Assembly (NCBI RefSeq): GCF_027921745.1 | Contig: NC_079238.1 | Coordinates: forward strand, 2,356,001 to 2,420,000 | From: Schizosaccharomyces osmophilus | Taxonomy: Eukaryota | Direction of reading: 5' to 3' | Length of the DNA stretch: 64,000 nt | In this document: piece after piece, positions 892-20,806 of the stretch | How the letters are laid out: the number at the start of each line of letters is the position of its first letter | Numbering within the stretch: position 1 is the first letter of the stretch | Notes under the pieces: generated by a model | Told to the model about the DNA's origin: nothing | Database searches by the model: none | What the model saw: the letters and a program-made list of their open reading frames with translations, nothing else | Made by a program: the position numbers and the translations under genes

Positions 892-2340
892 TTAATCTTT
901 TTTATGTTCATTAAAGGCTTCTTGTTCCTCCCCATTTAAAGCGGTTTCCTTCTGAGATTCGTCGGAACCATTTTGCTTTGCTTCCGAAGGAGATTCATTT
1001 TTTTCGTTTTCGACAATTTTGGGTGAAGATTCTTCTTTGGCATCTTCGAAGACTTGTGCTTTGGTCTTTTCCTTATCCTCAGAAGCCAAATTTGATGGTT
1101 TGCTATTCTGAGGCGCATCCATTAAGCCAAGATCTTCCTCCTCGGCTTCTTTCTTCACCAAATGGTCATCATCTTTCGAATAACCATAAAGTGGAACGTC
1201 TTCCAAACCACTTTCCAAAACGGCAGTTGAAGAGCTCAAGTCTTGGTCATTAGAACTTCCTTGGTCCTTTGGAGTAACAGAGGTATTCTTGGACTCTTGT
1301 TTCTTATGTTTTCTCTTTTCGGCCTTACGGGCTCTATACTTTAGAATATCGAGATAGGACCATTGTTCACGGGGAGGACCGTAGATAAGACGCAAGGAGT
1401 TATCTTCCTCATCTACCACCCATTTTCCGTTCTCCATATCGTAAGCCACAATGGCTAAGAAGTCGGCCCAAGAACGGGCAATGACATATTTAGTATCTTG
1501 GTCACGACCGAAGAGAATCACTTGTCCCCAATGCCCAGCGGGACCTGGAGCAAGGTCTACAGCAATGTTATTACCGACAAAATCCTTGGCGAGTGGAATC
1601 CAGCCAGGATGAGCATAAACGCATTGAACAGCACCAGGTGGAAAAGAAGATTGACGGGAAGCGACGGCTTGGTCGATCTTTCCAGCTATAGTGGCTTCAG
1701 CGTAAGACTGAGCAACACGACGCCAAAGCTCAGATTCCTCTTCAATTTCCTCAATATCCAATAATGTAACACCGAATAAGATTCCGGTGAGATGACCACC
1801 ACGATCTTGGCCATCGTGGATATACATACTTTCTCGAACGTCACGAGGTAAAGTGCACTCCAGTTCATACTCAAGGCTGTCAACATCAGCGGCGGTAGCG
1901 CCTGGACATAATTGGCAGTACAGCTCATAATAGTTTTCTTCAGCCCATCGGTCAACGCGTCTCCAAGACTCAGAAACGGGAGCAGGCAAGTTAGCAGTTC
2001 CGTTAGGGTTTATTTCTTGCATTTGGATTTCCATTGCATTGTTGGCAAGTTCATTGGAACGACTTCCCGGAACGTAAGGAACTTTTGTGGGAGCTTGGGA
2101 ATTCGTATTCGAGAGGTTTTGAGTAGAAGTACTCCTGCTGTCGCTCAAGAGTCCAGTTTGACTAGCATTAACGCCAGAATACCCAGAAGTAGCAATGGAC
2201 TGTAAGGGAGTAGGAAGTCTTGAATTTTTGTCACGTCGACTGGGGTTAAATGCAGGATCAGCATGTCTGTTGGCTGTTGTCAAAGACTGGAAAAAAGAAG
2301 TGACTGAATCAGCCACGGAAGAAAACGCGTTTTTTGACAT
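892..2340 (-). CDS. smi1: Cell wall assembly regulator, SMI1/KNR4 family
   Basis: 482-aa ORF with HDGQ, HPGWIPL and GNNIAVDLAPGP.G.WGQVILFGRD.DTK motifs of Knr4/Smi1; acidic disordered tail. Confidence 0.92.
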   Translation of the reverse strand: MSKNAFSSVADSVTSFFQSLTTANRHADPAFNPSRRDKNSRLPTPLQSIATSGYSGVNASQTGLLSDSRSTSTQNLSNTNSQAPTKVPYVPGSRSNELANNAMEIQMQEINPNGTANLPAPVSESWRRVDRWAEENYYELYCQLCPGATAADVDSLEYELECTLPRDVRESMYIHDGQDRGGHLTGILFGVTLLDIEEIEEESELWRRVAQSYAEATIAGKIDQAVASRQSSFPPGAVQCVYAHPGWIPLAKDFVGNNIAVDLAPGPAGHWGQVILFGRDQDTKYVIARSWADFLAIVAYDMENGKWVVDEEDNSLRLIYGPPREQWSYLDILKYRARKAEKRKHKKQESKNTSVTPKDQGSSNDQDLSSSTAVLESGLEDVPLYGYSKDDDHLVKKEAEEEDLGLMDAPQNSKPSNLASEDKEKTKAQVFEDAKEESSPKIVENEKNESPSEAKQNGSDESQKETALNGEEQEAFNEHKKD

Positions 2341-2977
2341 TTCTTTAGGATTAGTTTAGACAAACAAAAAAATCAAAAACAACTAGAGAATTCGTGTCTC
2401 AACAGCGAAGAGAAAGGGAATAAGCACAAAAAGAAGGTGCGAGGGAAAGGAAAATTTTCTTCAGGAAACACAACGTATGCGATACGATGTAAAAGAAAGA
2501 TTGAAGTGCTTCCTAGAAATGATTATCTTCAAAAACGTAAAATGGAATGTTTTCAAAGATATACCAGCAAAATCAATTATAATGCAGCAGAAGATCAGAG
2601 GTACTGGGAGGAAGAGTAGAGGTAATACTTGTCTATGAGAAAATAGCTCTCGTTTTAGCAGCCCTCGAAAGTACGCGTTGGAACACGTAATATAGTAATT
2701 ATTGGAAAAGTCAAAAAGCAAAACTTGCGATGAAATACAGCTCGAAATCAACCATCCAAAAACACGTTCTCCTATGCTAATTACAATTCCTCAACATACC
2801 AGGAAGATTATTTGCCAGTAGAGCTTGGTTACGCTAACGAAATAGATTATTACTCTAATAGTAGTACAAAAAAACATCAGCAAACTAGCAGGTTTCCTAT
2901 AAATACATTATTCAGCGCCTTCATATCCATGACACTGCCGTGAAAGAGTTCCAAACCAATTTCAAAAAGATTGTAGT

Positions 2978-3959
2978 TTAATACAAACGGTAGGGTTTAC
3001 CCATCGTAGACTTAATAACCAAGGAACCAATGTTTTGCCAGCCTTTCTTAAGCAAAGAAACCAAGAAGTTAATGGAAAGCATAATATTGGCAATCAATTG
3101 ATCTTCAGTCATTTCGACATGTCCAACAGCAACACCCAAACAAAGGACCTTCTTCAGTTGAAATTTGATGGTAGACTTAACTTCAATAATCTTTCCATAC
3201 AAATCATCATTGTGAGAAACGGGAGTAGGGAATTTACCGGCTATAGCCATCGAGTTAGTAAAAACTCTTCCTTGTCAATGTAATCATTGAAAGGTGGGGC
3301 CTGCGGTTTCCTACGCTCCTTTCAAACTCTACTACTAAGGGAGAACCTTCCTTTTTTAATCTACAGTTTTCCAAAGGAAGATTCTATAGCCCTCGAGTCT
3401 ACATTATGTTTCACAAACAGTACACAAACCACAAGCACTGTGGTTTGTAGTTCCATCCGAACATTTGATGCTACAAGTTTTACAAGGAGAACGTAAGCAA
3501 TGAGAAAGCACAAGACGAGTATAAAGCCCGACCCTTAGCTTCTCATCAACCGTTAGCTTTACACCACTTACCTTTAGATAAACCAGGACCTAACAAACGA
3601 GGGATTTGCTTGATGAGGACTTCGGAAGCAACGAAAGCATCGTACTTCTTAGCCAACTTCTTAACAAGCTTCTTGTTCTTGTTAAGCTTTTTCAAATCGT
3701 CGACGGACATAGCATCAACACCTCCATGCTTAGCACGGTCCAAATCGTGGGCATCACCAAGAATGCAAAGAGCCATGTTAGGACGGGGAACATTGGGCAA
3801 CTTGATAGTACCAGAGAAACGCTTATCACGTTGAGGGTCGTAGTTCTTCAAACCAATTTGAAGTTCTACGGTCTCAGTGAAATGGCGCCTCTTTTGTTCG
3901 GAACCTTTCAAAATACCTTCTATGTTGGTACGAACATTGGCTCCCGATACCTTCGACAT
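2978..3959 (-). CDS. rpl102: 60S ribosomal protein uL1 (L1/L10a); join(3959..3572,3240..2978), 216 aa; 331-nt intron at 3241-3571
   Basis: MSKVS...[19 protein letters not shown]...GPGLSK|AGKFPTP...KSTMGKP. GTAAGT donor, TACTAAC branch and TAG acceptor give a 651-nt CDS. Paralog number assigned from synteny. Confidence 0.95.
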
Positions 3960-4036
3960 TTTCAAATTTTTTTTTTGGTGTTGTTGACGTTTGAAACCGA
4001 AAATCTGTTTCACTTGTAAAACTGTCGGGTTGGTCT

Positions 4037-4044
4037 TGTGACTG
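4037..4044 (-). promoter_or_regulatory. Homol D box (CAGTCACA) of the ribosomal protein promoter
   Basis: Exact CAGTCACA on the minus strand ~80 nt upstream of the rpl1 ATG; canonical fission-yeast RP core promoter element. Confidence 0.85.
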
Positions 4045-4242
4045 CTTCATTCGCCTAACGATAAACGCTCTACATCATTAATATACAATTTGTGTCACTT
4101 AGCGTGGATAATGTAAGTAAATAAATAAATAAATTCGATAGCTATGCTAAAAATTTGGTTTCGACTTTTAAAATACATCCTGTACGGGTTTTCCAAACCA
4201 TAACTGAAGATGTATGTAAATAACTAGTCTTCCAATACTTCT

Positions 4243-5118
4243 TTAAAAGGATATAACTTTAGAAAAGGAAGGTTTAGAGGAAGGGGGTGGGCGAGGGTGG
4301 ACCGAGCGATTGTAAGCAGAGTAACCATACTTTGCGTACAGCCAGCCAAAAACACCTCCTCCCAAATGAGCTGCATGATCGAAAAAGGTGTACTGGGCAA
4401 ATCGTTTAGAAACAAGACCCCACGTGTCAAAAGCCATTAGACCCAATAGTGCTACCCCAATTTTGATGGGAATAAAGGGTAGGAAAATGATGGAGACGGA
4501 TGCGTTTGGGAAAAAATACGCTGTAGCAGCAGCAATGGCATATATGGCTCCACTAGCACCCAGGGATCCTGGATGGGCCTTGACACCATAGCGCAGACGG
4601 TTATGGAGCAATGAAGCTAGGTTAGAGAACAATATGGATGAAGTATAGAACGCTAAAAACTGATTTTTTCCAAATACATCAAGGATCGCTGGAGCAAAAG
4701 AATAAAAGGCCATCATATTGAAAAGTAAATGCCAACCAGATTGATGGCTGAATGCGGATACAATAATAGAGGGTAAGTTTACAAAAGTGGGATTCATTAC
4801 AGCGTATTTTTCAAGGGCTCTGTGAAATGCAGGGATTCTCCATAAAGCGAATATACCCACATTTATACCTATAATCGAATAAATGACACTTCGGTTCGAC
4901 CTGCGATCAATAAGGCTTCGAGAATTCCAGGCGCTAGGCTTTTTTTGTTTATCCAAGTATTGCGCTACATAAAAGGTAGCTGATCCTGTTCCAACTGCAA
5001 ATGTAAGTGGTTTCCACAAGGGCGTCGGTCGAACATTTTCTATCCTTATCCAAGGCCTGTAGTAAAATCGTTTTTGCCCAAAGGTCCGAAAAAGTTTCTG
5101 AGAAAAAGAAGAATTCAT
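4243..5118 (-). CDS. rbd1: Mitochondrial rhomboid protease (Pcp1/PARL-like)
   Basis: FSH...HLLFNM, GASGA (catalytic Ser) and AAHLGG (catalytic His); basic N-terminal presequence. Confidence 0.9.
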
Positions 5119-20598: not shown

Positions 20599-20806
20599 TG
20601 CTCGTTTACTCATTCTTTTTATTTTAAAGAGAGTGGGTATAGATTTAAAGTAAATGAAATTTTTTTAATGACAATTTGATAGCAGTTTTTGTATGTATCA
20701 ACTAACCAAAGGATATGTAACATATTCATGGAAAAAAGAGCACATGTCGAAAGTCTTTAGAGTATTCATACAATCTGTATTATTTAGTCATACTAAGTTA
20801 ATATGT

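Follow-up and report, generated by a model that had tools for sequence, protein, structure and literature searches.

Does the intron of the rpl1 gene harbor a mimic of the rRNA site of ribosomal protein uL1, and if so, which segment is the mimic and which step of splicing could it control? Feedback by uL1 through rRNA mimicry is textbook knowledge in bacteria and archaea. In the 64,000-nt stretch of Schizosaccharomyces osmophilus DNA analyzed here (the window), a preliminary description had drawn such a mimic, for feedback on rpl1 splicing, as a 39-nt hairpin at 3325–3287. The idea held up, as an overlapping segment, 3301–3245, fits it, but the element named was the wrong one. The element at 3301–3245 is real and conserved, is located slightly downstream of the drawn hairpin, and very probably represents the uL1 site as a predicted rRNA mimic.

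The rpl1 gene lies on the minus strand, as do all features below unless stated otherwise. Its coding exon 1 (3959–3572, start codon at 3959) matched solved uL1 chains, the best being 9rvu_HL, "uL1B" (E 1.3e-75), and joined to coding exon 2 (3240–2978) it gives a spliced frame of 216 amino acids in two exons. The 331-nt, phase 1 intron (3571–3241) begins with the 5′ splice site GUAAGU (3571–3566), contains the branch motif UACUAAC (3260–3254), the branch adenosine A3255 being predicted to pair with U3264, and ends with the 3′ splice site UAG (3243–3241). The intron ends were confirmed by a contig from a relative's RNA run (X22) that joins 3240 to 3572 with a skip of 331 nt. No other joint in the relatives' RNA runs had splice-type ends; the remaining joints were taken as paralogs or other organisms. 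Runs X22 and X14 both contained spliced as well as intron-containing contigs, the depth of which is no measure of retention, and DNA may be present. The intron contains a single 5′ splice-site match, and its retention would lead into an in-frame UGA (3548–3546) and a 137-aa product. The intron is strongly folded (3571–3236: z −4.29, 0 of 100 shuffles as good) and includes two long internal hairpins at 3471–3401 and 3547–3499.

The uL1-site consensus was taken from the E. coli rplK leader and 23S rRNA (rrlB), namely, GGGAG at 2123–2127, CG at 2161–2162, and ACC at 2173–2175, with a pairing scheme that we take to be that of the E. coli sites; a descriptor built on this scheme recovers both of them. 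The 39 letters of the drawn hairpin are indeed present inside the rpl1 intron, and their closeness to the branch motif was confirmed, at 26 nt upstream of it. Of the two helices drawn, the outer one formed in the isolated 39-mer (seven of eight pairs at probability 0.91–1.00) and the inner GCG/CGC helix did not (no pair above 0.1), while the short side drawn as GA shrank to one A, as G3318 pairs with C3294. Folding of the isolated 39-mer was at chance level (z −0.87; 35 of 200 shuffles as good). In its context the hairpin is not predicted: within the whole intron all eight outer pairs had probability 0.000, forcing it cost 6.7 kcal/mol, and its top probability over 10 sequence windows containing it was 0.26. 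In the whole-intron fold, its 5′ strand was instead found in a zipper with 3497–3475 and its 3′ strand in a hairpin of its own.

The reading of this hairpin as a uL1 site did not survive comparison with the consensus, 4 of the 10 positions being missed: where E. coli 23S has G2123, G2162, A2173, and C2175, the hairpin has A, A, C, and U, respectively. Its core is AGGAG, in place of GG(G/A)AG, and the hairpin was still unmatched when the descriptor allowed A as the first base; the first G of GGGAG is reported to matter in yeast (PMC7732827). The suggested Rfam comparison, run over 2000–5000, gave three chance matches (E 0.83–6.9), none on the drawn hairpin or on the element at 3301–3245. The two share 3294–3287 and are mutually exclusive folds, the drawn hairpin being an alternative that excludes the H77-like hairpin described below. 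The drawn hairpin overlaps the uL1-site element but is probably not the site itself.

The element at 3301–3245 is predicted to be a uL1-binding three-way junction and is located in the uL1 gene transcript, on its sense strand. It is closed by a helix of 3301–3298 with 3248–3245, which stops two bases short of the 3′ UAG, and its two linkers are 3 nt each, one ending in A3295 and the other starting with G3251. The H77-like hairpin (3295–3270; z −4.57, 0 of 200 shuffles; helices at probability 0.91 and 0.99 when the whole intron is folded) has a bulged C3274 and a loop at 3284–3281, and offers A3295 as the equivalent of 2173, C3294–G3270 as that of 2174–2124, and C3293–G3271 as that of 2175–2123. 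Two unpaired As separate it from the H78-like hairpin (3267–3251; probability 0.98 in the whole intron, −4.5 kcal/mol alone), in which G3267–C3252 corresponds to 2127–2161 and G3251 to 2162. This second hairpin contains the U-tract and the branch motif, with the branch adenosine A3255 in the stem. The consensus letters are thus found as GGAAG (3271–3267, the core equivalent to 2123–2127), ACC (3295–3293), and CG (3252–3251), and in this register 10 of 10 consensus positions agree, 2125 being A as in S. cerevisiae RPL1B.

Pairing of ACC with its partners (A3295, C3294–G3270, C3293–G3271) was predicted at probability 0.73–0.98 in 14 sequence windows, and the second helix (G3267–C3252 followed by G3251) at 0.89–0.99 in 13 of the 14 and at 0.45 in one. 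When 3316–3241 was folded locally, the minimum-free-energy structure was the three-way junction with its closing helix (z −2.85). Within the whole intron the closing helix is marginal (probability 0.00–0.23), and the full junction lies just 0.8 kcal/mol over the minimum. The order of parts is that of a tandem form: closing helix, NNA linker, H77-like hairpin, AA, H78-like hairpin, and GNN linker. It differs from the classical rplK-leader type, in which G2162 to A2173 form one closed loop, in that its long side leads into a third helix instead. With C3305/G3304, a closed permuted site can also be drawn that fits in its letters, but it would cost about 9 kcal/mol and was rejected.

A relaxed descriptor, combining the letters with a pair probability of at least 0.4, gave one match on both strands of the window (128 kb), the junction, and matched 3 of 3000 shuffles of the rpl1 intron; the tandem topology entered the descriptor after the window had been seen, so that neither the window nor the shuffle count is blind. 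Independent tests of uL1 likeness were provided by other uL1 loci and by a covariance model (R1). The other loci came from a metagenome protein scan covering 12 of 64 parts, from which the best 80 of 221 uL1 relatives were analyzed. Among these, the descriptor matched 14 loci in the sense orientation and 0 of 80 in the antisense orientation (100 kb per strand), many of the 14 being mutually related and hence not 14 independent events; the remaining 66 were without a match, and 144 kb of sequence flanking the 80 loci gave none either. The 14 comprised eight tandem, three permuted, and three rRNA-like forms, most of the matches lying over the start codon of ascomycete-like genes; the match in L053 is doubtful, being absent from its minimum-free-energy fold. 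Rfam gave one chance match on 10 of the 80 loci. None of the best 80 of 221 relatives resembled the fission-yeast rpl1 intron. Other fungi carry a short intron (about 50–120 nt) without a descriptor match at the same rpl1 codon, so that the position of the intron appears to be old, and both its length and its content seem particular to the fission-yeast lineage, as judged from these sequences.

In ascomycete-like rpl1 genes (the lineage being assigned by protein likeness), the tandem form extends across the start codon; its linkers are those of the window junction, its AUG falls within the H78-like loop, and once spliced it has a closing helix as well. Tandem hairpins spanning the rpl1 start codon were seen in L004 (272–342), L005 (10–85), L006 (1388–1464), L012 (1441–1525), L013 (747–816), L018 (1367–1445), L021 (716–791), L022 (1453–1528), L023 (1434–1525), and L031 (1151–1222), and likewise over the start codon in L003 and L070. 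The G2162 equivalent of L006 and L031 is immediately followed by a 5′ splice site, and in these two the closing helix would have to await splicing. Five of the ascomycete-like loci were scanned in Rfam and gave no family. The ten copies listed with coordinates were aligned, L062 and L040 being omitted as misaligned and L012, L022, L023, and L031 included though outside the final descriptor list. ACC, GGAAGAC, and GUCG were invariant in the ten copies, 86% of the cells were paired, and 3 of 15 pairs were changed on both sides. The share of cells paired and the covariation score were each reached by 0 of 500 shuffles; of five measures compared with 500 shuffles, three lay above all of them and two did not (equaled or exceeded by 207 and 52). 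Conservation of the H78-like arm is inflated in these copies, as the arm is partly coding.

R1 was built from these ten copies with the window excluded. On the window, it aligned 3303–3242 end to end (model positions 1–76) with all 15 pairs standard, and both partners were swapped relative to the R1 consensus in at least three pairs. The score was 13.7 bits (E 0.03, a weak value), ranking 2 of 22. The top match, 20699–20767 on the plus strand (14.2 bits, E 0.019), has most of its pairs broken and was read as chance. R1 also found three further loci, L003, L070, and L011 (E up to 4e-4). The support of R1 for the junction is modest in score, yet it falls in a uL1 gene and on the predicted element.

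Conservation was evaluated in relatives, of which DNA runs X7, X11, and X12 cover the rpl1 intron at about 90% identity. X11, X12, X14, and X22 (organisms D, E, and F) differ mostly in gap placement that tracks the contig strand, owing to which they probably represent one species, giving two independent relatives in all. Runs X5 and X6 (organism B) held exon pieces from other species and one identical 5′ piece, leaving the junction uncovered, and X24 held nothing matching the rpl1 region. In X12, 1 of 25 listed intron changes fell in 3333–3241 against 7.0 expected (P 0.003, the expectation having no neutral baseline behind it), and in X7 it was 1 of 17, a further 71 nt on the upstream side being so diverged that they could not be aligned; changes less than 30 nt from piece ends are unlisted in both counts. 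The sole change in the block, at 3281, lies in the H77-like loop and is tolerated as well by an extended form of the drawn hairpin. The drawn hairpin is thus conserved in relatives, as had been expected of it, but the conserved block runs on from it to the branch point and the 3′ splice site. The junction showed no covariation in the relatives, being invariant but for one loop base, and constraint on the branch point and the 3′ splice site explains part of this invariance. Paired changes elsewhere in the intron often break predicted pairs (8 of 14 in X12, 5 of 9 in X7); a 13-bp internal hairpin (3385–3342) carries one compensatory change (3380/3347) in one relative. The second rpl1 copy is intronless in all three DNA runs (X7, X11, X12).

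The intron also folds over a longer range. A zipper of three helices (probabilities 0.91–0.99) joins 3497–3475 to 3329–3310; its 3′ strand is invariant in the relatives, and 3503–3468, including the 5′ strand, has no listed change. Its pairing of 3329–3310 is predicted, from the modeled fold, to prevent invasion of the uL1 site. Within 3503–3445, a single change is listed in the relatives. The segment 3502–3493 is complementary to the 5′ splice site (3571–3562) and is predicted to form a 10-bp mask with it. When prefixes of the intron were folded, the mask had a probability of 0.59–0.93 with RNA ending between 3480 and 3320, and at most 0.07 from 3300 on. Speculatively, these models would fit a co-transcriptional timer in which the 5′ splice site is masked until the 3′ strand of the zipper emerges at about 3310.

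Among the known systems, the 5′ UTR of S. cerevisiae RPL1B, with a GGAAG core, a requirement for both stems and the first G, and a mobility shift by Rpl1 (PMC7732827), is a closer precedent than L10ARE, the element of nematode rpl-1 and vertebrate RPL10A. RPL1B resembles the rpl1 intron in involving a eukaryotic uL1, an rRNA-like motif with a GGAAG core and two stems, and regulation of one paralog (PMC7732827), but it is intronless and repressed at translation initiation (PMC7732827, PMC13232506), whereas in rpl1 the putative site lies within the intron, with the branch point in its second stem. The analogy with L10a autoregulation, which had been offered in favor of the drawn hairpin, applies as function only. 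As in the outcome proposed for rpl1, uL1 drives its own pre-mRNA to unproductive splicing through L10ARE, yet that element is described as having no relation to the L1 stalk, and it governs the choice between two 5′ splice sites (PMC4937301). L10ARE is placed between these sites, whereas a single 5′ splice-site match was seen in the rpl1 intron, whose rRNA-like element is located at the branch point.

With the bacterial and archaeal uL1 operators and 23S H77–H78, the junction shares all ten positions (A for G at 2125). Those uL1 sites are reported to be helix–junction–helix structures read mostly by domain I (PMC10931766, PMC2175363); in the rpl1 junction, a third helix replaces the closed long loop and both arms are capped hairpins. 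The operators target translation, whereas the proposed target of the rpl1 junction is splicing. A protein-buffered, intron-bearing paralog with an intronless partner is also known from S. pombe rps2202 and rpl30-2, where repression of splicing depends on the paralog (PMC4695336), although other proteins and RNA elements are involved. The zipper switch of S. cerevisiae RPL7B likewise resides in a long structured intron; its bound fold destroys the zipper (PMC12311795), whereas the bound fold predicted for rpl1 coexists with the zipper and contains the branch point. In yeast ribosomal-protein introns, zippers have been reported to bring splice signals together (PMC13232506).

We consider it probable that uL1 binds the junction, that the branch point is thereby blocked, and that the intron is retained. 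Segment 3301–3245 combines the ten consensus positions, a branch motif within the second hairpin, near-invariance, and an intronless paralog, as read from the sequence. Both the H77-like and the H78-like hairpin are predicted to form in the whole intron, where the zipper 3497–3475/3329–3310 would shorten the intron, bring its splice signals together, and block the competing hairpin drawn at 3325–3287. Protein uL1 from either paralog, when unclaimed by pre-rRNA, would bind the junction, as L1 operators and yeast RPL1B suggest. The branch-point hairpin is weak (−4.5 kcal/mol) and could otherwise be opened by the spliceosome; clamped by uL1, it would no longer allow the branch-point protein and U2 snRNA to engage. 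Translation into the retained intron would end after 137 codons, and nuclear surveillance or NMD would destroy the pre-mRNA. The intron-bearing rpl1 copy would then be the buffered paralog, in the manner of S. pombe rps2202 and rpl30-2.

Had the drawn hairpin 3325–3287 been the uL1 site, bound uL1 would free 3329–3310 from the zipper and 3502–3493 would mask the 5′ splice site. A forced drawn hairpin does yield the 10-bp mask, at a penalty (6.7 kcal/mol) within reach of a tight binder, and the X12 changes at 3564 and 3560/3505 preserve this mask, although the one at 3505 depends on alignment. Such a switch would parallel that reported for RPL7B (PMC12311795). The hairpin is also invariant in the relatives, but its invariance is accounted for by the zipper and the junction, and with 4 of 10 consensus positions missed, z −0.87, probability 0.00 in context, and no descriptor match, this account is highly improbable. 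Binding of uL1 to the junction might instead act on use of the 3′ splice site, on later spliceosome steps, or through recruitment of nuclear decay (Mmi1/exosome), which we regard as unlikely since uL1 would contact the very helix that contains the branch adenosine, making occlusion of that adenosine the most direct effect. The end of the closing helix two bases before the 3′ UAG is consistent with an action there, and an Mmi1/exosome route has been described for rps2202 (PMC4695336); the two Mmi1-type TNAAAC motifs in the intron (3482 and 3413), both without a listed change in X12, are at chance level, two or more occurring in 859 of 5000 shuffles.

It is similarly unlikely that the intron structure is a mere aid to splicing, or hosts a small RNA of the H/ACA type ending after ACA 3275–3273, and that the uL1 likeness is due to chance. 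The strong whole-intron fold (z −4.29) and a zipper of the kind reported for yeast ribosomal-protein introns (PMC13232506) would suit a splicing aid, but a hairpin covering the branch point would hinder splicing. As regards a small RNA, the preliminary description had noted neither C/D boxes nor an adjacent H box. The absence of CUGA was confirmed, the only C/D-type box in the intron being one C-like heptamer at 3287, whereas H-like ANANNA hexamers are indeed present (3362, 3357, 3354, and 3322). Those at 3362–3352 and the conserved ACA at 3275 flank a stretch of 80 nt, but the hexamers occupy the loop and the 3′ arm of the hairpin with the compensatory change, and the relatives lack the other ACA (3281); the H/ACA-type hexamers and ACA of the intron are located in predicted helices or loops. 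A chance likeness would leave unexplained a full consensus that is unique in 128 kb, is found in a uL1 gene, and recurs at other uL1 loci.

Neither the rpl1 intron element nor the start-codon form of ascomycetes was found described in Rfam or in the open-access literature by title and abstract. The main texts of two fungal RNA screens (PMC8216456, PMC5640933) report motifs for other ribosomal proteins only, and the supplement of PMC8216456 may list known structures. If the proposed mechanism is true, the rpl1 intron joins two known modes, the true rRNA mimic of bacteria, archaea, and RPL1B and the splicing control of animals, and the branch adenosine is built into the uL1 binding site, which would be a simple mechanism in a group used as a genetic model. 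Many eukaryotic uL1 loci were found to contain the uL1-site-like motif in its open three-helix form. Tentatively, and with some doubt as to whether all its parts hold together, one may suppose that a single portable rRNA-mimic junction is widespread among eukaryotic uL1 genes and has been rewired to different control points. It would sit on the branch point in fission yeast, on the start codon and the first 5′ splice site where genes are filamentous-ascomycete-like, and in the 5′ UTR where they are yeast-like; other genes would have it in 3′ UTRs, and another lineage would have a GUAAG in its long loop. In fission yeast, the branch point would then be the helix 78 of the mimic, and the timer would keep the 5′ splice site covered until transcription is about to reach the uL1 site.

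Further arrangements were observed among the uL1 loci. A motif of rRNA topology is present upstream of the coding region in L035 (103–165), L037 (79–144), L077 (1397–1458), and probably L024 (near 59). GUAAG occurs in its long loop in L035, L037, L077, and probably L024, which suggests a 5′ splice site inside the mimic in another lineage. The 5′ UTRs of the yeast-like genes L011 (1450–1500) and L007 (near 1482) contain a permuted closed motif, as against the open tandem form in the rpl1 intron, and this motif is probably of the RPL1B type; it was not found in the budding-yeast-like copy L010. In non-fungal-looking uL1 genes, uL1-site-like motifs were seen 3′ of the stop codon (L039, 2155–2237; L040, 940–1011) and in a 5′ UTR (L062, 11–70). 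Within the window itself, 3993–3932, around the rpl1 start codon, gave a weak R1 match (7.2 bits, E 4.8), with CACC followed by an A-run and without GGAAG; it may be a remnant of the start-codon site of ascomycetes or reflect no more than coding likeness.
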